From the IMG/VR virus record IMGVR_UViG_3300037424_001538, positions 1-45,207 of that record: a stretch of DNA of 45,207 nt. The stretch is one strand, 5' to 3'. The notes under the pieces were generated by a model that made no database searches, was not told the DNA's origin, and saw only the letters and a program-made list of their open reading frames with translations. Below are positions 21,733 to 43,214 of the stretch, one piece after another (position 1 is the first letter of the stretch; every line of letters starts with the position of its first letter). This DNA is from a virus. Lineage: Duplodnaviria; Caudoviricetes. A program made the translations under genes and the position numbers.

Positions 21733-22025
21733 TGCACTGGCTCCTTCTCTAGAACGCGAAGGTGTGACGACATAACCCAACCTTCCACGCCCGTTGAGTC
21801 CTTGACGTTCCGCCACTGGTTACTAAGTCGATCGGTACGAGCCAAGCTTAAGTCGATGACGACACTCCCCATCGAAAGTGTCTTGATCGTGATGCCTAGG
21901 GGCTCCTCCATGAGGTACGTCTCCTCTTCAACCACGACGAGCTGGCGGCCTAAATTCTGATACCCTCCTCCACAACTACTTAACAGTAGCAGGAGGATCA
22001 AGACGATTATGAGTAGCTTCATCAC
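21729..22025 (-). CDS. Small lipoprotein with SH3b-like domain
   Basis: Lipobox LLLSSC; WRNVKDSTGVEGWVMSSHL. Confidence 0.65.
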   Translation of the reverse strand: MMKLLIIVLILLLLLSSCGGGYQNLGRQLVVVEEETYLMEEPLGITIKTLSMGSVVIDLSLARTDRLSNQWRNVKDSTGVEGWVMSSHLRVLEKEPVQ

Positions 22026-22912
22026 CTTATCCTGTGCGGCCGGATGAGCTCGAAGAACTCATCTCGGGCTGACGGGTTCGACATAAACATACCTTCAGGC
22101 CGTGAAGTGACCATCGCGCCGTTGTGCTTTCGCACGCCGCGGCACGACATACAACTGTGCGAGGCTTCGATCACCACCATCACGCCATGAGGGTTGAGAC
22201 GCTCTTTCAGGTCCTTGGCTATCTGAGCCGTAAGCCGCTCCTGCACCTGGGGTCGTCGTGCCCAGAAGTCAACCAGGCGAGGAATCTTGGACAGGCCCAC
22301 CTGCAGCTTGTTCGCGATGTAGGCGACGTGAGCCACCCCCATAAATGGCAACAAGTGGTGTGCACAGAGTGAGCTGAACTCGATTCCCGGCACACACACA
22401 ATTTGACCGGGATCCGACTTGAAGGTGGTGAACTCAAATGGCAGTGCTACCTCACCTGGAATAGCCACCTCTTTCGAGCACAGCTCGCCCATCTCGGCCC
22501 AGTACCCCAACACCCGCTTCGCTGTCTTTTCGACGCCGTCGTCGAACATGTGCTCGCCAAAGATTCGAGCCAGGATGTCTCCCAGCGTGGTCGCGTCCAT
22601 TTCTGGAGGGGAGAAGATCTTTGGATTGTAGTCCAGGGTCTCCTGAACCTGTTCGGCCGTGGCATCGTAGGGATTATTAGACATGTCGGGCTCCGTTGTT
22701 CCTATGATAAGGTTGTCGTCGTTGTATGTGTATGTCAGTACTAGGTTGTATTCTTTGGCTGAGCGAACGGCGCGAGCTGCCATACCGTGATGGAGAATGT
22801 CTAAGGTGTACAAGATGCCCTTTAGGTCTTTCACCACAACACGCTGTGTGGGGCTGTGCTCATCAGGTTCGTAGATGTGATGTACGGTTCCTGTAATCTC
22901 TCGCTCCATCAC
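22022..22912 (-). CDS. folE: GTP cyclohydrolase I with N-terminal extension
   Basis: FSSLCAHHLLPF, GLSKIPRLV, RPQVQERLT, HSCMSCRG. Confidence 0.95.
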   Translation of the reverse strand: MMEREITGTVHHIYEPDEHSPTQRVVVKDLKGILYTLDILHHGMAARAVRSAKEYNLVLTYTYNDDNLIIGTTEPDMSNNPYDATAEQVQETLDYNPKIFSPPEMDATTLGDILARIFGEHMFDDGVEKTAKRVLGYWAEMGELCSKEVAIPGEVALPFEFTTFKSDPGQIVCVPGIEFSSLCAHHLLPFMGVAHVAYIANKLQVGLSKIPRLVDFWARRPQVQERLTAQIAKDLKERLNPHGVMVVIEASHSCMSCRGVRKHNGAMVTSRPEGMFMSNPSARDEFFELIRPHRIR

Positions 22913-23679
22913 GTGCCTCGCGTGTTGCCAAAGAGTGTGATGTGCAGGCGTGTCGTTAGGTTGTAACCGCGATCGATAGCTCCGTTGAGCACGTCTTTCG
23001 AGTGCTGGCTGATTGCCTGGTCGGTGATGCCTTCGGGCATGATGTACACGTTAGAAGGCTTCACTCCCGCCGAGGATACGATCCAGTCGATCTCCTTGAA
23101 GTCGTCTGCCGAGTTGACCACGAACTTGAAGCCCGAGCTGGTCTCGGCGAACCAGGTCAGCGCCTCGAGATCAAACCTGGTCTTCTTGTCGTTGCCACTG
23201 TTTGCTAGCTTGGGCGAAACACTGAACCACGAGACGTAGGGTCGAACGTACTGAGGCGCGATGGTGCCATTGGTCTCCATGTGCACCAACCACTGTGACC
23301 ACCATGACGAGTTCGGAGACACCCACAGTTCCTTGAAAAGTTCTGCAAGCTGTGCCTCCTGCAGCATTGGCTCGCCGCCGGTGACGACTAGCATGCGAAC
23401 CTTGGTACCCTGGTGAAAGTTCCGCAGCCAATGGATAATGTCGAGCACCTCCACCTTCTTCAGCTCGGTTCGAGGGTCATACTTCTTGCCCGTCACGCCG
23501 GTCCAGTCCCAGGTGTAGGCACTGTCGCACTTCCAGATGCTGGGGTCGGTTTGCCACCCTTTGCCGCACTGGAGGTTGCATCCGCCTAGCCGCATGAAGG
23601 TGCAAGGTGTGCCAATAAATGGTCCTTCACCCTGTACTGTCGGCTTGTCGTACAGTTCACTGATCAGAAGCTTGGTCAT
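22909..23679 (-). CDS. queE: 7-carboxy-7-deazaguanine synthase (radical SAM)
   Basis: TVQGEG, RLGGCNLQC...CDS, TGGEPMLQ, ETNGT, VSPKL, KFVV, RLH. Confidence 0.93.
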   Translation of the reverse strand: MTKLLISELYDKPTVQGEGPFIGTPCTFMRLGGCNLQCGKGWQTDPSIWKCDSAYTWDWTGVTGKKYDPRTELKKVEVLDIIHWLRNFHQGTKVRMLVVTGGEPMLQEAQLAELFKELWVSPNSSWWSQWLVHMETNGTIAPQYVRPYVSWFSVSPKLANSGNDKKTRFDLEALTWFAETSSGFKFVVNSADDFKEIDWIVSSAGVKPSNVYIMPEGITDQAISQHSKDVLNGAIDRGYNLTTRLHITLFGNTRGT

Positions 23680-23683
23680 TGCA

Positions 23684-24475
23684 TCACTCCTTCGCGGCCA
23701 TATGCTTGAGGTTATCGGTCAAGGTCGTTCGGGCGAGCTCGATCATGGACTGGTCACCTGCCGCCGCGAAGCCGACCTGCATGGAGAGAGCGTTGAGTGT
23801 GATGTTTAGGTCAGGTCGCGCGCTCTGAGCTAGCCTGAGGTATCCCTGGGCGTCGTTGTAGTGATCGACGAAGTATGGGCTCTTCAAGGCTCTGGTCAGC
23901 TTGTTGTGCACCAGGATGATGCAGAAAGCGATGTCGCCCACTCGGTTCAGCTCATCGGTATGCTCATGAATCCACCGACCCGTGACCAACCATGCGTCGC
24001 CATACATCTCGTTCCGATCGTGCATCAGGAGAGCAATCTCGTTAGCCCCTTCGATCGGACCCCATGAGATTTCGGTCTCGGGTATGTAGGTCGCCGACGT
24101 GCCGTCAGTCTCCTCGACAGACACCGAGCACAGCTCAGGAATGCTGGCCTGGAAGAACTCGAACAGGAACCTGGCGATGTTCTCAGCTGTGGTCTCGATG
24201 TGGGCCTGTGCCATCGGGTGATCGTTCAGAAACGCTAGACTAGGTAGGCTCTCGTTGAGATTTCGGTGGTCGAAGTACTTCTCGATGATGGGCTTGACGT
24301 TCTCGCTGATCTCGCCGTAGTCACGAACGAAGCCCATCTCGTCGAGTTCGCTCGACCTTAAACCGAACTCGACAACGTACGAATGACCGTGGAGCCTGCC
24401 GCATTTGTGGCCTTCGGGCACCTTGGTTAGTTGGTGAGCTGCTTCGAACCTAAAGCGTTTAGTGATGATATACAT
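23684..24475 (-). CDS. queD: 6-carboxytetrahydropterin synthase fused to a C-terminal DUF6378/Nmad1-like helical domain
   Basis: FEAAHQL, CGRLHGHSY, DHRNLN, TTAENIA, VEET; C-terminal DRNEMYGD...KLTR...DHYNDAQGY. Confidence 0.88.
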   Translation of the reverse strand: MYIITKRFRFEAAHQLTKVPEGHKCGRLHGHSYVVEFGLRSSELDEMGFVRDYGEISENVKPIIEKYFDHRNLNESLPSLAFLNDHPMAQAHIETTAENIARFLFEFFQASIPELCSVSVEETDGTSATYIPETEISWGPIEGANEIALLMHDRNEMYGDAWLVTGRWIHEHTDELNRVGDIAFCIILVHNKLTRALKSPYFVDHYNDAQGYLRLAQSARPDLNITLNALSMQVGFAAAGDQSMIELARTTLTDNLKHMAAKE

Positions 24476-24483
24476 ACTGCTCC

Positions 24484-25230
24484 TTATACGACGCCATAAG
24501 GCGACTTGTACTCGAACTTGCGAAGGACGCTAATACCCGTAGAGAAGTCAATGTCAGCGTTAGGTTGCGCTGCCAACCTTACCACGGTGCCTTCTACCAG
24601 CAGGTCATTCCCGTCGAAGATGCCCTCGACCATAGCACTGCTGAAGTAGTAGACGCCATCAATGCGGCGAGTGTAGATAGTCGACATCACACGCCACAGA
24701 TAGAGCCATTTGGTAGCGTCGTCCCACAGCCAGCAGCCAGCTTGACCTTCAAGGGCTTCCATAGTGTTGCCAATAGCGTCGGCCACCATGGACCCTCGCT
24801 CGAAGTGGTACTGGATGCCCGCCGCGATGGCTGCTGAGTCTACCTCGGTGTACGCAAGGCGGCCGTGATCAGCATCGTGCATCCAGGTTGCCGGAGTCTC
24901 GTCTTGCCAGTTCAGCAGGAGGCCATTGTGTGCAACCAGAAACCGACCAATGGCAAACGGGTGAATGTTGTCAAGATCGTCGTTCTGACCACCTGTCGGT
25001 GCTCTTGTGTGTATGGCACACACCGTGCCTAGGCGAGCTGCTTGGACCGCCAACTCTGGGTTGATCTCGGCAGTCTCCCTTACGAGGTAGCTTCCCACCC
25101 CTCGTGACCACGTCCAGGCACCGTATCCCAGGCTACCCCTTGACACATTGGCTTTGACGACCTTGGTGAACAAATCGCCATCTGCCCTTTTACCGGCAGT
25201 GACGACGACGAAGCCCATGATGCCACACAT
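24484..25230 (-). CDS. Class II (Ntn) glutamine amidotransferase, stand-alone
   Basis: MCGIMG, HTRAPT, HPF, AHNG, VDS. Confidence 0.88.
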   Translation of the reverse strand: MCGIMGFVVVTAGKRADGDLFTKVVKANVSRGSLGYGAWTWSRGVGSYLVRETAEINPELAVQAARLGTVCAIHTRAPTGGQNDDLDNIHPFAIGRFLVAHNGLLLNWQDETPATWMHDADHGRLAYTEVDSAAIAAGIQYHFERGSMVADAIGNTMEALEGQAGCWLWDDATKWLYLWRVMSTIYTRRIDGVYYFSSAMVEGIFDGNDLLVEGTVVRLAAQPNADIDFSTGISVLRKFEYKSPYGVV

Positions 25231-25231
25231 G

Positions 25232-25450
25232 CTACTTGTCCTTTATCAGCTCTTCGATCTTCTTGCGTATTGCTTGGTTCATCGTCACCCTGGCGTTGTG
25301 CTCGTACAACGCAACAAACGCCTTATACTTGGCAAACCCCATTGCAAGGTTTCTAGCTACGACGTACGACACGAAAGACAGGACGATGCCTGCAATGGTC
25401 AGCTGGGCTAGAAGAATCCAAAAGATAGACCACGGTAGTGGGTACAGCAT
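25232..25450 (-). CDS. Small membrane protein
   Basis: Long hydrophobic N-terminus; coupled to neighbouring genes. Confidence 0.55.
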   Translation of the reverse strand: MLYPLPWSIFWILLAQLTIAGIVLSFVSYVVARNLAMGFAKYKAFVALYEHNARVTMNQAIRKKIEELIKDK

Positions 25451-25866
25451 CAGACAGTCCCCTTATACGGCGGCACTGCTGGCAGATCGTGGACGTTGGG
25501 ATGATAGTCTTCAGTAGACTCTACCTGACCGGGCCTGAAGCAGCGGCGATGATCCTCAAACCAAACCTCGACGCTATCGACTGGCATGTTGAGAGATGGA
25601 TCCCCATGCGGGTAGCTGATGACAGGGCCGGCGCGACCCAAGTCGGGATCGTCGCTCTTGATGCCATTGTTGTCGGTACTGACCACCTCTACGATCTCGC
25701 CAATGTCGTAGGTAGCGGTGTAGCCCCCGCCACTGTAATACACTCGAGTCTTTGAGTCGTAGCAGAGGCTGTCTATCTCAATGAAACTCACGCGACAACC
25801 GGCCTCGATGCTCAAGAGCTCCACGACCCTCTCGATTGGGAGGCCCTTGACCGCAATGATCCTCAT
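25450..25866 (-). CDS. Hypothetical protein
   Basis: ATG at 25866 with AGGAG after the queC stop. Confidence 0.5.
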   Translation of the reverse strand: MRIIAVKGLPIERVVELLSIEAGCRVSFIEIDSLCYDSKTRVYYSGGGYTATYDIGEIVEVVSTDNNGIKSDDPDLGRAGPVISYPHGDPSLNMPVDSVEVWFEDHRRCFRPGQVESTEDYHPNVHDLPAVPPYKGTV

Positions 25867-25877
25867 GATCTTGTCTC

Positions 25878-26564
25878 CTACTCGACGTATGGGAGTGGAT
25901 CCACAACGCCGCACTGTTCGAAGGCTGTGAGACGCTCGACACAAGTGGGACACACACCACACGCTACCTCCCCCCCACGGTAACACGACCAGGTGTGCGA
26001 GTAGTCGACGTCGTTCTGAAGACCCCACCAGATCTCGTCCCGCTTGCTCCACTCGGCAAACGGAGCCAGAACCTTGATGAGGTGCTTCCGCTGCATGTTG
26101 ACGACGATCTGAACCCTCTCTATGAACGCAGGTGTGGTATCCCAGTAACCGTAGGCGTCATGGCGCTGAACGCCGCAAAGGACTGCTTCAGCGCCAATAG
26201 CCTCGGCCACGGAAAGGCAGATAGAGAGGATTATGAGGTTGCGAAAGGGGACGTATGTGCTAGGCTGAGGATCCCCGAGGACCTGTTTGAGAGTGGGGAC
26301 TGCCTCATCCGGAGCCACAAGTGAACTGCTCCCCAGCATGGCAGCGAAGTGCAACCAGGGCTCGTCACCCGCAGTGAAACTATCCTTAAACAAACCTGCC
26401 TGGTACTCGGCACACTCAAGTTCCTTGAGGTGCTTCTGGCCGTACTGGAAGCTGAGCGCGTGGATCTTGTCGAAGCCCATCTCCTTGTGTGCATAGTGGA
26501 GAAGGGTGGTTGAGTCTAGCCCACCGGAGAGGGCTAGGACTCCGATTCTCTGTGGCTGACGCAT
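25878..26564 (-). CDS. queC: 7-cyano-7-deazaguanine synthase
   Basis: LSGGLDS, YGQKH, TYVPFRN, TWSCY, CGVCPTC. Confidence 0.95.
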   Translation of the reverse strand: MRQPQRIGVLALSGGLDSTTLLHYAHKEMGFDKIHALSFQYGQKHLKELECAEYQAGLFKDSFTAGDEPWLHFAAMLGSSSLVAPDEAVPTLKQVLGDPQPSTYVPFRNLIILSICLSVAEAIGAEAVLCGVQRHDAYGYWDTTPAFIERVQIVVNMQRKHLIKVLAPFAEWSKRDEIWWGLQNDVDYSHTWSCYRGGEVACGVCPTCVERLTAFEQCGVVDPLPYVE

Positions 26565-37509: not shown

Positions 37510-37764
37510 TTAATCAACTGGATCACCACCTTTCGTTGCAAGGGATATCCGTGTGATGGGTACTCCCTTGATTTGCTCGTAGTACTTGCATGTGTCTATG
37601 AACTGATCAGGGCGTTGATACAGCTTCAGTAACGTGATGTATAGAAAGCCCTCTGGGTCGATCTCCCAGTTATGATCGGGATCGGGATGCCACAGATAGA
37701 CGCGGCTAATCCTTGTCGCCTCGGTGAGAGGATCTTTCCACGTGTCTAGGCTCACTAACAACAA
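37510..37764 (-). CDS. Hypothetical protein
   Basis: TTG start with AGGAGG just upstream. Confidence 0.5.
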   Translation of the reverse strand: MLLVSLDTWKDPLTEATRISRVYLWHPDPDHNWEIDPEGFLYITLLKLYQRPDQFIDTCKYYEQIKGVPITRISLATKGGDPVD

Positions 37765-37844
37765 GGCCTCCTAGGTAAGGAGTGGCTTGGCTGTCTGGGC
37801 TTTTGCCACTCCTCACGTCACATGAGCTTGCGCGAACGTGGCGC

Positions 37845-37978
37845 TGGTTGGGTGCCTTACAACACCAGCATCTCGACACACGGTAGGCAGTTACCCCTCT
37901 CTTCACCCTTCAGGCAGTGCCTTGGGGCGCACTGGAGGTCTGGTCGCCTAGGTCGCAAGCCTTAGCTTAGGGCACCCA
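37845..37978 (-). ncRNA. CCA-terminated structured RNA, unit 5 (134 nt)
   Basis: 5' TGGGTGCC pairs with GGCACCCA, followed by ACCA; internal ACCAG/CTGGT helix and CAGTGC/GCACTG hairpin. Confidence 0.65.
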
Positions 37979-38097
37979 TGGTAGGGACAGTGTGCACCAC
38001 GCGCCTCACTCAGGCGCCTGTTTGACAGCCTCCCAGCCGTCGCGTACGAAGGGCGTGCAAACCCTCTTCTCCTGAAAAGCTACGTAGCACTGTCCCT
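37979..38097 (-). ncRNA. CCA-terminated structured RNA, unit 4 (119 nt)
   Basis: AGGGACAGTG/CACTGTCCCT 10-bp terminal stem plus ACCA; three internal hairpins. Confidence 0.75.
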
Positions 38098-38219
38098 TGG
38101 TAGGGCGATGTGCACCAGACAGACCACCCATGAAGCGGCTTTTGCCACGGCTTTCGACCGTAGCCCCGCGAAGAGCGTGCATCCTCTTCTTGTCGCACGT
38201 GTCTTGCCTGCATCGCCCT
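38098..38219 (-). ncRNA. CCA-terminated structured RNA, unit 3 (122 nt), homologous to unit 4
   Basis: AGGGCGATG/CATCGCCCT 9-bp stem plus ACCA; shares AGAAGAGG..TGCACG..CTTCG and TGGTGCACA with unit 4. Confidence 0.75.
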
Positions 38220-38331
38220 TGGTAGGACACAAGCGAGCGTGTGACCTGCTCCCCTGAGTCACATCTTCTCAACACAAGCAACTGTTCTGGCTTGCTCCTG
38301 TGTACTTTAGGAGCATTTTCGCTTGTGTCCT
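38220..38331 (-). ncRNA. CCA-terminated structured RNA, unit 2 (112 nt)
   Basis: AGGACACAAGCGA/TCGCTTGTGTCCT 13-bp stem plus ACCA; hairpins TGCTCCT/AGGAGCA and TGTGACT/GGTCACA. Confidence 0.75.
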
Positions 38332-38590
38332 TGGTGGAGGGTTATACGATCCCTTCAAACGACTTGTGATCGACGTAGGCCGGGCTCACGCGCACCAGAC
38401 TTCAGTGGGCTGGACCTTTTACGCGTGTACCGACTATTTTACCTGTGCTTACACTGTATGCGTTTCGAGAGTTTGCCGCTCTCCCAGCCTATGCACTCAC
38501 GTCCTAAGACGCTTGGCGACTACCGGAGTAGCCTGTTCTAGACTGGCACGCTACGTCGATCGGGTCCGCGCACACTAGGGAGGATAACCC
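38332..38590 (-). ncRNA. CCA-terminated ornate RNA, unit 1 (about 259 nt)
   Basis: GGGTTAT/ATAACCC, TCCCT/AGGGA and GATCGACGTAG/CTACGTCGATC closing helices, several internal hairpins, 3' end TCCACCA. Confidence 0.65.
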
Positions 38591-38597
38591 AGCGTGC

Positions 38598-38673
38598 TGG
38601 TGGATCACCTAGGATTTGAACCTAGGACCTGCTCGTTATGAGCGAGTTGCTCTAACCACTGAGCTAGTGATCC
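38598..38673 (-). tRNA. tRNA with CAT anticodon (Ile2 or elongator Met)
   Basis: GGATCAC/GTGATCC acceptor, TAGCTCAGTGGTTAGAGCA D-arm, CTCATAA loop, GGTTCAAATCC T-arm, encoded CCA; 76 nt. Confidence 0.92.
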
Positions 38674-38760
38674 TTATTAGACTGCCTGGGCCGCGCCGCT
38701 GGCACGCACAAAAATGACAACGGCGCGGCCTTTAGGACAGCTCCCCGAGCCCACAGGGAG

Positions 38761-38837
38761 TGGTGGAAGTGAAGGGTCTCGAACCCTTGCCTTATGTGCC
38801 TATCGCGCACTTGCTCTGCCGCTTAAGCTACACTTCC
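38761..38837 (-). tRNA. tRNA-Ile(GAT) with atypical anticodon loop
   Basis: GGAAGTG/CACTTCC acceptor plus ACCA; AAGGG-TTCGAGA-CCCTT T-arm; GTGC-GCGATAG-GCAC anticodon arm. Confidence 0.75.
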
Positions 38838-38998
38838 AGCTTGGCTCTCTCACCCGCGATGACGACCAAAACACGCCGCAAAGCCGACTCGACACCAGTA
38901 TTTATGTTGTACAGATTTTTAGGTTCGGTGTCGCTCCTCTTCACCTTGGCGAGCATGTCCTGGACTTCCGCCTCTATCTTACTCAGGACTTCGTCCAT
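38828..38998 (-). CDS. 56-aa hypothetical protein (not in the ORF track)
   Basis: GGAGGAG RBS; MDEVLSKIEAEVQDMLAKV...LEV; its TAG lies inside the 5' end of tRNA-Ile. Confidence 0.55.
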   Translation of the reverse strand: MDEVLSKIEAEVQDMLAKVKRSDTEPKNLYNINTGVESALRRVLVVIAGERAKLEV

Positions 38999-39623
38999 GT
39001 CTCCTCCATGCGGATAACACTACGCCGTAAGTCCACACCATCTCGTACCCCAGAGATATCAGCTGTGCCTCGATCTCCACCGTCTGGGTCATGTATGGAT
39101 CTGCAGCGGTGTGATATTGTACCATCAATACTATAGGTAAAATGCCCTTCGACAACATGTAGGGGATTAAGGTGTATTCATAGCCTTCTATGTTCACCAT
39201 CATAACATCAATGATGGTGATATCCAATTCCTCGAATGCTGTGGCGACGTCACGCACCTTCGCAAGGGCTCGGGCCGGTGGCCCTATTTCGTCATAAGTG
39301 AGGAGTGAGCAACCATCTGTTTCAAAGCCAAATAAGGGAAGGGTCTTATCTTCTGCGCCTAGTGCATAGTCGAGCACCGTGGCTCTGCCGCCTAAAACGC
39401 GCCTGCACACCTCTGCTGCCCACAGTTGAGGCTCGAACACAAAGATTTTGCAGTGGTGCATAAGGGCCATCTGGAGAGCCCACCGGCCTACGTAGCCGCC
39501 TACCTCGACTACAGTCGAGTCTTCGATGAGCGGCCACAGACACGCCCTCATGTCCCACAGATTCGTTGGTGTGGCAAGGGCCTTTTGAATGGACTCTTCG
39601 GCTAACCTATCGTAGTCGTACAT
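38979..39623 (-). CDS. FkbM-family methyltransferase
   Basis: VVEVGGYVG, FVFEP, YALG, IDVMMVNIEGYEY, VQYH. Confidence 0.85.
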   Translation of the reverse strand: MYDYDRLAEESIQKALATPTNLWDMRACLWPLIEDSTVVEVGGYVGRWALQMALMHHCKIFVFEPQLWAAEVCRRVLGGRATVLDYALGAEDKTLPLFGFETDGCSLLTYDEIGPPARALAKVRDVATAFEELDITIIDVMMVNIEGYEYTLIPYMLSKGILPIVLMVQYHTAADPYMTQTVEIEAQLISLGYEMVWTYGVVLSAWRRHGRSPE

Positions 39624-39843
39624 GGATACCTCAGCCGGCTCGGTCGCTTATACTCCACCCCACGACCGAGCCGGTATTAGCTTTCCATCACGTGCACAGC
39701 CCACAGAATGGATTACGACTACCATGAGCCAGTTGCCGGTGGCGCGAAACAATGAGGGCGCGACCAGCGACCAAACCTGAGCGGTCAGGAGTGGCGGAAA
39801 CAAAACCGACTTTATGGCTCTGTGGGTTCAGCATAAGGCACGC

Positions 39844-39964: not shown

Positions 39965-40061
39965 CCCCCGAAGGGGGAGGATGGACTGAGCGACTCGAAC
40001 GCTCTCGGACAACCTGCTTGCAGGCTCCTTTAACCTGTTGTGTGATCAGCACTCCACCCTC
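39965..40061 (-). ncRNA. tRNA-like element lacking a canonical D/anticodon arm, followed by a UUCG hairpin
   Basis: GAGGGTGGA/TCCATCCTC terminal stem; perfect T-arm GAGCG-TTCGAGT-CGCTC; CCTGC/GCAGG hairpin. Confidence 0.5.
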
Positions 40062-40361: not shown

Positions 40362-40593
40362 ATCAGCACCTCTTGTGAGTCTACTAACCGTTAGCGCCGG
40401 AGTATCGGCCAGGACCTTCGGCGCTAACGACTAGCAAGGAGGGCACCCGATGAATGCTGGTGTGTAGGCTCCGTGGGCGGCGAATCTCACGCACGCCCCG
40501 AGCCTCTTGAACCGTGTGTAGACGGTCAAGCTAGGCAGCAAACTGGCCATCACCCCGCGTCCAGCCGGCGCCTAGCTTGACCTTCGGCTGATG

Positions 40594-41124: not shown

Positions 41125-41153
41125 ATTATATAGCAGATTTGATTGAATGGCAA
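41125..41153 (-). promoter_or_regulatory. sigma70 promoter TTGCCA-N17-TATAAT
   Basis: Exact spacing; nearest recognisable promoter upstream of the tRNA/ncRNA region. Confidence 0.8.
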
Positions 41154-41206: not shown

Positions 41207-41728
41207 TCATTCAACCTTAGCGTGTTTGGAACCATTGCACGACTTGCACAGTAGCTGCAGATTGGTAATGCTATGCGCACCACCTTTGCTCAGAGGGACA
41301 ATATGATCAATAGTGGAATCGGCTTCTCTGCCACACCTTGGACAAATACCACTCCAAGTCATTAGCATTTCTAGCAATGCCTTTGAGGTGACTGTACCAT
41401 CGCTGGACGAGACCCTGAGTGCGCGACGCTTGTGGTCACTCGCCTTCTTTACATGTGGGTTGTCTTTGACGTACTGTTTGATGCGCTCTTTGTTCTCCTC
41501 ATAGTACGTCTTGTCGTGTCGCTTATAACTCTCTTTGTTTGCTTTGTAGTACGTCTCGGCGCGTCGCTTATAACTCTCTTTGTTTGCTTCGTAGTATTGT
41601 TTGTGGCACTCTTTACACTGAGAGTTCAGTCCGTCCGGTTGTTTGGCATTCTTACTGTACTTATCAGGGGGTTTAGGTGCTCTGCACCTATTACAAGTTT
41701 TCAGCCCCGTTATTGGGTCGAGTCTCAT
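41207..41728 (-). CDS. HNH endonuclease with N-terminal zinc finger
   Basis: CNRC...CKEC; CPRCG...TIDHIVPLSKGGAHSITNLQLLCKSCNGSK. Confidence 0.92.
   Translation of the reverse strand: MRLDPITGLKTCNRCRAPKPPDKYSKNAKQPDGLNSQCKECHKQYYEANKESYKRRAETYYKANKESYKRHDKTYYEENKERIKQYVKDNPHVKKASDHKRRALRVSSSDGTVTSKALLEMLMTWSGICPRCGREADSTIDHIVPLSKGGAHSITNLQLLCKSCNGSKHAKVE
41518..41596. repeat. 45-bp-period tandem repeat inside the HNH gene
   Basis: GTCGCTTATAACTCTCTTTGTTTGCTT(T/C)GTAGTA at 41518 and 41563; encodes YY(E/K)ANKESYKR twice, with a third degenerate copy. Confidence 0.85.
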
Positions 41729-41925: not shown

Positions 41926-42636
41926 CTATGCACCTCGCCAATCGTCCTCCGCCTGAGCATAACCTTCAGGGGTACCGATATCTTTGAGGTATCCTGTGGC
42001 TAGCCTACCGTATACAAACATACCCCTCTCTATCAGACGTGGGATAACGTCGAGGCTGAAGTCGCTGATGCCTTGGGGTATGAATGGTAGGATTGCAGGC
42101 TCGCAGATGTATAGGCCTGCATTAGACAAGTTGCTGCCGGTCCAAAACTGGGGCTTCTCAACCAGACTGAGTACTCTGCCTGGGGGGGCGATCTCGACCA
42201 TGCCTCTACCTCGGTAGTCAGAGGAACTCTTCAAAGCTATGGTTAGATCGGATCGTTTCCGATAGTGGAAACGAACCAAGTCACTCAGATCGATGTCGAT
42301 CAGCATGTCGCCGTAGATCACCAGGAATGACTCCCTAAGCCACTCAGGATGGTTGTCGACTATGCGCCTTATGGCGCCCGACGTCCCTAGAAGTGAAGAC
42401 TCGTAGGAGAAGTGAATGCGTACTCCTGGAACAGGGTCTTTGTCCAGAACATCCCAGATGACTGCAGGTAAGTGATGCAGGTTGATGATCGCATCCGTTA
42501 TGCCCTGGGTCTTGAGCCAGTCAAGGGTTCTGAGCAGCAGCGGTCGTCCACCAATAGTCAGAACCGCCTTCGGACAGGTATAGGTGACAGGTCTCATTCG
42601 CGTACCTTCGCCAGCGGCTAGGATGATCGCCTTCAT
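41926..42636 (-). CDS. Sugar-1-phosphate nucleotidyltransferase (HddC/GMPP-like)
   Basis: MKAIILAAGEGTRMRPVT...PKA, LLGTSGAI, VIYGD, EKP, NAGLY, DIGTPEGY. Confidence 0.9.
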   Translation of the reverse strand: MKAIILAAGEGTRMRPVTYTCPKAVLTIGGRPLLLRTLDWLKTQGITDAIINLHHLPAVIWDVLDKDPVPGVRIHFSYESSLLGTSGAIRRIVDNHPEWLRESFLVIYGDMLIDIDLSDLVRFHYRKRSDLTIALKSSSDYRGRGMVEIAPPGRVLSLVEKPQFWTGSNLSNAGLYICEPAILPFIPQGISDFSLDVIPRLIERGMFVYGRLATGYLKDIGTPEGYAQAEDDWRGA

Positions 42637-43214
42637 GGTTGAATCCCTCCTATTTGTGTTCGTAACCAAACGGCAAGTGCATGACACACCACACTATGTG
42701 CATCCTCGACCTGAGGCATAGCGTAGTTGGCGACAACAAGACTATGTGTAACTAAAGTGGCAAGGGTACCTCCATTAAACCCCGATAGCCCTACAGTTGG
42801 AGCTCCTCGACTGGTAGCCCAATCTACCGCACTAAGTACGTTGGGTGAGTTGCCACTGCCCGATATGGCAAAGAGTAGGTCTCCTGGTCTATAGTGCCCT
42901 GCTAGTTGCTCGGCGAATATCGACTCGTAGGCGACGTCGTTAGACCACGCAGTCAGTAAGGGCACGTTGTCGGTGAGCGCCAATGCCCGCGCGCGCCGGC
43001 GGCCCCAGTTGATCGTTCCCTTGGATAAGTCGTTAGCAAAGTGTGATGCGGTTGCTGCGCTACCCCCATTGCCACAAATGAATATGGTCCCGTCTCGTTG
43101 GAAGGTCTCCCACAAGGATGTAGCTACCGCCTCGAGCTGGCCTCTTCGAATCCCTGCTAGCGTATACGCTACCGCCTTGATGTAGGTATCGATCTGTTCC
43201 ATACCTTCGTTCAC
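42633..43214 (-). CDS. gmhA: Sedoheptulose-7-phosphate isomerase (SIS domain)
   Basis: ICGNGGSAATASHF, LTDN, SND, ISGSGNSPNV, QVEDAH..VCH. Confidence 0.88.
   Translation of the reverse strand: MNEGMEQIDTYIKAVAYTLAGIRRGQLEAVATSLWETFQRDGTIFICGNGGSAATASHFANDLSKGTINWGRRRARALALTDNVPLLTAWSNDVAYESIFAEQLAGHYRPGDLLFAISGSGNSPNVLSAVDWATSRGAPTVGLSGFNGGTLATLVTHSLVVANYAMPQVEDAHSVVCHALAVWLRTQIGGIQP

Follow-up and report, generated by a model that had tools for sequence, protein, structure and literature searches.

A gene-free row of five folded, CCA-ended RNA units (U1 to U5) lies behind two tRNA genes, on the same (-) strand, in an uncultured tailed phage from sediment (Caudoviricetes; record IMGVR_UViG_3300037424_001538), whose 45,207 nt are the whole stretch of DNA analysed and are called the window below. 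The array is real and far beyond chance. It stands within the phage tRNA cluster at a spacing of 0-7 nt to its same-strand neighbours, and a perfect ACCA is encoded by all five units, giving a purine-CCA end throughout. Four of the units, U2-U5, measure 112-134 nt each and follow one another from ACCA to ACCA with zero spacer, being closed by stems of 13, 9, 10, and 8 bp, respectively; they fall into a size class of about 100-170 nt with paired ends and a multi-hairpin interior and are not tRNAs. This arrangement would be best explained if non-coding RNA cassettes sat in the phage tRNA operon in order to exploit the tRNA-maturation machinery of the host. The features of the operon, from upstream to downstream, are as follows.

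41763-41735, (-) strand: candidate sigma-70-type site, 12/12 consensus match
41125..41153, (-) strand: sigma-70-type promoter, the nearest strong candidate for the operon, 11/12 consensus (consensus match only)
39973..40061, (-) strand: tRNA-shaped element farther upstream on this strand, closed by a 9-bp stem, with a perfect T-arm and no encoded CCA
38761..38837, (-) strand: tRNA with encoded CCA, called Tyr(ATA) by ARAGORN, its 7-nt anticodon loop centring on GAT
38674..38760, (-) strand: 87-nt structured spacer, a 7-bp hairpin from the base after the CCA and then a long hairpin, z -5.9
38598..38673, (-) strand: tRNA(CAU) with encoded CCA (ARAGORN/Rfam), either Met or Ile2 reading AUA
38570..38597, (-) strand: leader hairpin of 10 bp, beginning on the base after the tRNA CCA and mutually exclusive with the U1 closing stem
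38332..38590, (-) strand: U1, 259 nt, interrupted closing stem of 7+5 bp, 11-bp core stem, multibranch interior, TCC-ACCA end
38220..38331, (-) strand: U2, 112 nt, closed by a 13-bp stem before ACCA, with a stretch of about 45 nt duplicated in tandem inside the unit
38098..38219, (-) strand: U3, 122 nt, 9-bp closing stem plus ACCA, hairpins 38189-38170, 38164-38144 (GAAA loop), and 38139-38123
38181-38177 with 38115-38111, (-) strand: putative pseudoknot of U3 (predicted)
37979..38097, (-) strand: U4 (paralogous to U3), 119 nt, closed by a 10-bp stem before ACCA, with hairpins 38066-38049, 38041-38024 (GGGA loop), and 38017-38001
38059-38055 with 37997-37993, (-) strand: putative pseudoknot of U4 (predicted)
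37845..37978, (-) strand: U5, 134 nt, 8-bp closing stem plus ACCA, interior of one long irregular stem
37776..37816, (-) strand: hairpin of 12 bp that follows the array and directly precedes the ribosome-binding site belonging to the next gene (37764-37510)

The arrangement had been noticed earlier from the letters of the sequence, and recomputation returned every unit coordinate, stem length, and ACCA end given in that earlier note, including the start of each next stem at the base after the preceding ACCA in U2-U5 and the 7+5+11 bp stem of U1 with its 3 extra nt before ACCA. The two strands of the window together contain 714 ACCA pairs with a separation of 50-300 nt, and a stem of at least 6 bp was found in seven of them; four of these are U2-U5, and the other three are isolated and unchained. 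In 20,000 dinucleotide shuffles of the array region the longest chain was 0 in 18,616 cases, 1 in 1,380, and 2 in 4; a chain of at least 3 never arose, whereas the actual sequence has one of 4. Under a strict definition of the chain (stem of at least 8 bp, no spacer, unit of 85-300 nt) even a chain of two was absent from all 296 other loci, about 2.6 Mb in total. Moreover, two contigs of a second sediment run match positions 37730-38161 and 38164-38445 with zero differences, which shows that the greater part of the array did not arise as an artefact of assembly.

The window carries genes for tape-measure and tail proteins, DNA polymerase A, a primase, and an SNF2 helicase. Because a 78,908-nt contig from a sediment run joins across the 45,207-nt stretch, the phage probably has a circular genome of about 79 kb. 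Seven named sequences are present among the 120 listed homologs of the phage nucleotidyltransferase, and the three of them that carry Chloroflexota names are top-ranked with 45-47% identity, which may be taken as a weak hint at the host. Positions 22022-26564 (-) hold genes of 7-deazaguanine DNA modification (GTP cyclohydrolase, QueE, QueD, glutamine amidotransferase, and QueC), beside which the DNA polymerase A possesses an N-terminal uracil-DNA-glycosylase-like domain. Genes of a sugar isomerase (SIS) and an NDP-sugar nucleotidyltransferase (41926-43214 and 38979-39623, (-) strand), together with an FkbM-type methyltransferase, are unusual phage cargo. The HNH endonuclease gene at 41207-41728 (-), with its own perfect sigma-70 promoter and three internal 45-nt repeats, lies in a low-GC stretch and is probably a mobile insert.

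Judged by its anticodon loop, the tRNA at 38761-38837 is probably Ile(GAU), the loop being unusual in having the non-canonical GC at positions 32-33. ATA accounts for 137 of the 570 Ile codons in 24 phage ORFs, and both phage tRNAs may be isoleucine tRNAs. Since a helix also begins right after the CCA of the first tRNA, the placement of a helix directly after CCA is a rule of the cluster. The upstream element 39973-40061 received neither a tRNA call by ARAGORN nor an Rfam call, and it resembles the RNA1 and RNA2 of phage T5 in style. Other stable hairpins lie between genes on this strand (40382-40419, 39631-39676, and 40457-40506, (-) strand; z about -3) and are possibly processing sites or additional RNAs. 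A 12-nt word is common to U3 (38146-38135) and the hairpin after U5 (37805-37794), both on the (-) strand, and may be due to chance.

ARAGORN and Rfam made no tRNA call in the array, as the earlier note had expected, nor any tmRNA or other Rfam call, and detected only the two tRNAs, and a motif scan of the units likewise agreed that none contains a T-loop. The covariance models of Rfam 15, applied to 37845-38597 up to E 10, gave no match, including SRP, C4, GOLLD, ROOL, and the known ribozymes and riboswitches. Several identities were ruled out on these and related grounds: tRNA by the lack of a cloverleaf, T-loop, or anticodon arm; tmRNA by the lack of a T-arm in the units and of an ARAGORN or Rfam call; Y RNA (YrlA) by the lack of a T-arm domain and by a GNCGAAN0-1G motif that is not in a Ro60-binding stem; SRP and C4 RNA by the lack of an Rfam covariance-model match. 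Hammerhead, pistol, and HDV-like/theta ribozymes, group I/II introns, c-di-GMP and preQ1 aptamers, and RNase P RNA were rejected by their motifs together with the Rfam blank.

Small protein-coding genes might also occupy such a region, as six ORFs of 60-92 codons overlap the array and one of them (P0241) was picked by a gene caller. This explanation is extremely improbable, however, because none of the six matches a PHROG family below E 0.11, their codon scores range from -0.115 to 0.008 versus 0.105-0.314 for nine neighbouring ORFs, and the 91-codon ORF, searched against 1.84 billion representatives, found only a 99%-identical 74-aa record. Thus, the earlier statement that no credible gene is present there holds, with one ORF searched for homologs.

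The folding z-scores are -3.6 for U2, -3.3 for U3, -3.0 for U4, and -1.9 for both U1 and U5. The units are predicted to fold independently, and in the long precursor the closing stems of U2-U5 have a predicted mean pairing probability of 0.82-0.98. U1 is the weaker unit and its closed form is uncertain, since the 10-bp hairpin 38597-38570 takes the strand that the closing stem needs: with the 7-nt leader attached the predicted probability of the closing stem is 0.00, the leader hairpin winning by 7.4 kcal/mol, while it rises to 0.98 when the RNA starts at 38593 or 38590. According to this leader-dependent switch in the models, U1 may be either a two-state RNA or an open RNA still ending in ACCA. 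In U2 the internal duplication (z 5.1; 1 of 2000 shuffles) provides the 5' strand with two alternative 3' partners.

Such alternative folds in both U1 and U2 would also suit a single uncut RNA of 750-1050 nt or a cis leader of the downstream genes, in which the ACCA linkers are relics, as would the lack of a terminator-like site cleanly ending the array and the position of the post-U5 hairpin, which abuts the next ribosome-binding site. Nevertheless, selection for processing would lead to just such a pattern of five exact ACCA ends, each flush with a stem, the units are predicted to fold independently of each other, and no large RNA of Rfam is matched, which together make an uncut RNA quite unlikely.

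U3 and U4 are, by sequence, diverged paralogs: their cores remain alike when the end stems are left out of the comparison (z 6.1; 0 of 2000 shuffles), similarity in the remaining nine unit pairs is not significant, and U5 has no detectable relation to the other units in pairwise comparison against shuffles. In both, the 5' strand of the closing stem leads to a hairpin whose 8-nt loop contains UGCAC, and then come a hairpin capped by a GNRA loop, a linker rich in A, and a third hairpin; GUGCA immediately precedes the 3' strand that completes the closing stem. Their closing stems differ at four positions with pairing complete in both, and an in-register alignment of the first hairpin shows one A-U/G-C swap, as seen in two sequences only. 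Because UGCAC and GUGCA are complementary and leaving them free costs only 1.2-1.4 kcal/mol in prediction, a pseudoknot between them that stacks on the closing stem is plausible, although its strands are identical in U3 and U4 and thus show no covariation. On sequence grounds U3/U4 are a new paralogous RNA pair.

The maturation of the array may be considered in the light of RNase P biochemistry. Bacterial RNase P is described in PMC10731613 as pairing with the 3' RCCA and cutting at the foot of the helix, and the same paper names pre-SRP (4.5S) RNA and phage C4 RNA as substrates with a plain helix and no T-loop; that polycistronic precursors are separated by RNase P is stated in PMC11143913 (section 11). 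U2-U5 fit this substrate form, having a helix, then the 3' RCCA, and a single-stranded -1 base. The array would be transcribed together with the tRNAs, and host RNase P would cut each junction of CCA and stem; as the units abut, a single cut would complete both the 5' end of a unit and the CCA 3' end of its predecessor. U2-U5 would in this way become discrete stable RNAs, and U1 would refold or keep its leader hairpin. Cotranscription with the tRNAs and RNase P cuts at the junctions giving discrete U2-U5 RNAs are, as far as the sequence allows one to judge, probable. The earlier proposal that RNase P releases five RNAs is thus a sound inference for U2-U5 and less so for U1, which may not close; in addition, the junction bases are A(-1) and A or U(+1) and there is no T-loop, which is not optimal for the RNase P of E. 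coli and B. subtilis (the optimal junction being U(-1)/G(+1) in PMC10731613), though these are preferences and not requirements.

Regarding function, the tRNA-type end is proposed to serve mainly as a handle for maturation and exonuclease protection, while the folded interior would be the working part, most likely itself the ligand of a host protein that acts in translation, tRNA metabolism, or defence and would be bound or occupied by it during infection. As a whole this explanation is given a little less than an even chance. It is preferred because the conserved interior of U3/U4 exceeds what a bare decoy would need and because T5-like phages keep the end stems and exchange the interiors: in the RNAIII slot of T5-like loci the end stem is kept and the interiors differ, as judged by eye in four of seven loci (L270-L273).

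The bare decoy itself would reverse these roles, the interior being a scaffold and the acceptor end a lure for toxins that act on the acceptor stem or CCA, such as the toxSAS FaRel2/CapRel, MenT-type nucleotidyltransferases, and GNAT acetyltransferases. Beside the perfect ACCA in all five units it may be mentioned that FaRel2 modifies a synthetic minihelix and reads the acceptor stem and CCA, according to bioRxiv 10.1101/2024.07.05.602228. However, the first three pairs of U2-U4 are A-U, G-C, and G-C and do not correspond to the FaRel2 determinants G1-C72 and C2-G71, a conserved U3/U4 interior is needless for such a decoy, and a catalytic toxin would presumably use it up; by sequence, this role is plausible but of low probability. 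Similarly doubtful is the broadest reading, in which zero-spacer cassettes of stem and ACCA would be a general phage platform, cut by RNase P, for non-tRNA effector RNAs and U3/U4 a new pseudoknotted family neutralising tRNA-targeting defence. Within such a counter-defence role U3 and U4 could imitate the top half of a tRNA through stacking of the pseudoknot helix onto the closing stem, or, alternatively, UGCAC and GUGCA could pair between molecules with formation of U3-U4 oligomers.

Another use of the acceptor-like end would be aminoacylation by a host synthetase, the units being carriers of amino acids used off the ribosome. All units have A73 and CCA, but no anticodon arm; the G3-U70 pair is an identity determinant of alanine, and the U2-U5 stems contain no such pair. 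Minihelices are charged by some synthetases, as reported in PMC9976931, where bacterial Ile identity is also said to need the anticodon and C4-G69, and the latter pair is found in none of U2-U5. Charged carriers are accordingly rated, from sequence, as a very improbable role. As C4 is a phage RNA matured by RNase P without a T-loop (PMC10731613), the units might instead be antisense or immunity RNAs like C4 of phage P1, released by RNase P and directed by base pairing against mRNAs of the phage or the host. Against this, the longest match of the array to the rest of the 45-kb window (of a genome of about 79 kb) is 14 nt, within the 11-15 nt of shuffles, matches of at least 11 nt number 19 against 12.4 +/- 2.6 in 30 base shuffles over the same window, a mild excess, and the c4 family of Rfam is not matched, so that an antisense role has only a slight chance.

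Searches for homologs suggest that the array is so far known from one phage. In blastn against 50,697 phage records the array had no true relative, and all loci from pattern scans of viral contigs (29, 2, 48, and 6 loci) and of metagenome contigs (43 loci) proved on inspection to be chance matches or protein repeats. No chain was present in 23 viral tRNA(CAU) loci found by pattern scan, in any of 80 helicase-linked viral loci, the best of which share the gene order with up to 40% helicase identity, or in 56 helicase-linked loci from genomes, all distant, these helicase-locus counts leaving out the five closest helicases (51-54% identity). A covariance model of U3/U4, rough as it is built from two sequences, with one stray pair and with the closing stem out of register for U4, gave no hit below E 0.09 in 61 sources other than U3 and U4 themselves, and it found nothing in the 23 viral tRNA(CAU) loci or in 49 viral records from 50 of the 80 helicase loci. 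One neighbouring phage protein had no relatives in the search, and another nearby protein had weak matches only in an atlas search. In the literature covered, outside which subscription and older papers mostly fall, nothing was found on this array or on the function of the T5 RNAs; six motif strings were absent from six of the supplement files of PMC10690425, and PMC4810235 gave nothing bearing on the array.

Family-level relatives with the same replication gene order are without the array and have a tRNA in one of 20 records; the lone tRNA(CAU) of a distant relative, with no encoded CCA, occupies the corresponding position between an HTH gene and the helicase (L143 8922-8996) and has no array beside it. 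This absence from the family-level relatives examined, the position next to tRNAs, and the duplications within U2 and between U3/U4 speak for tRNA genes in decay or for selfish inserts that serve no function today. On the other hand, no unit shows a T-loop or a tRNA score, the closing stems are perfect Watson-Crick helices, and U3 and U4 have diverged yet kept their pairing, and for this reason decay or selfishness is considered very unlikely. That family-level relatives replicate without the array also counts against the explanation by a maturation handle with a working interior.

Several systems matured by RNase P share parts of the design. Pre-4.5S (SRP) RNA and C4 RNA have, like the array, a long closing helix with a 3' tail (PMC10731613). 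U2 contains SRP-like CAGG/AGCAG words, with only 2 nt between them, and hence the SRP apical stem-loop is missing. The bacterial Y RNAs (YrlA) are also similar in having paired ends, several RNAs per precursor, and tRNA-type processing, and in M. smegmatis YrlA is cut by RNase P and CCA is added, according to PMC4201824. Unlike YrlA, the units have no T-arm and GNCGAAN0-1G occurs once only, in a hairpin loop of U3; no Ro60/TROVE gene is found in the 45 kb of the genome of about 79 kb.

The closest likeness is to the stable RNAs of coliphage tRNA operons. In T5 (AY543070.1) RNA1, RNAI, RNAIII, RNA2H, RNAIV, and RNA2 are annotated as "stable RNA with unknown functions"; like the array, they are non-tRNA molecules of 103-172 nt with paired ends and multi-hairpin interiors in tRNA operons, and RNA1-RNAI-RNAIII-tRNA-His stand head to tail with spacers of 0, 4, and 0 nt, RNAI ending in GCCA. 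In contrast to the array, most T5 units have no encoded CCA and two have T-arms, and 374 records match the T5 stretch over 80% of its length, whereas the array is known from one phage. The kept stem of the T5-like RNAIII slot is 20 bp and runs into the 5' end of tRNA-His, and the T5-like locus L275 has an extra stem-closed insert. In T4, rnaC and rnaD (species 1 and 2 RNAs) are stable RNAs of 119-139 nt directly behind tRNA-Arg, rnaD ending in ACCA; unlike the array, there are two RNAs instead of five, and rnaC has a T-arm. The role of the T4 stable RNAs is described as unknown in PMC3014915, PMC9697503, and PMC12685909, and PMC9697503 still gives no function for the T4 and T5 RNAs together. 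The array has no sequence similarity to any of them (best pairwise z 2.2 of 40 comparisons) and, in sequence terms, is thus an analog and not a homolog, alike in layout. None of the T4/T5 stable RNAs is in Rfam, so the Rfam blank does not set the array apart from them; in the strict chain test none of nine T4/T5-type loci passes, while the array passes with four units. Putting the array forward as the best candidate for an undescribed system, as the earlier note did, was an overstatement, since the head-to-tail, stem-closed non-tRNA RNAs beside tRNA-His of T5 precede it and are closer to it than those of T4.

In summary, the array offers a clean substrate for in vitro tests of RNase P release and of acceptor-end decoy activity, with U3/U4 as a natural pair for structure probing, and a decoy or ligand role, if true, would mean an RNA-based counter-defence. 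Compared with its precedents it represents the T4/T5 layout in a distant phage, with unrelated sequence and in a purer form, having ACCA in every unit and no spacer between U2-U5.
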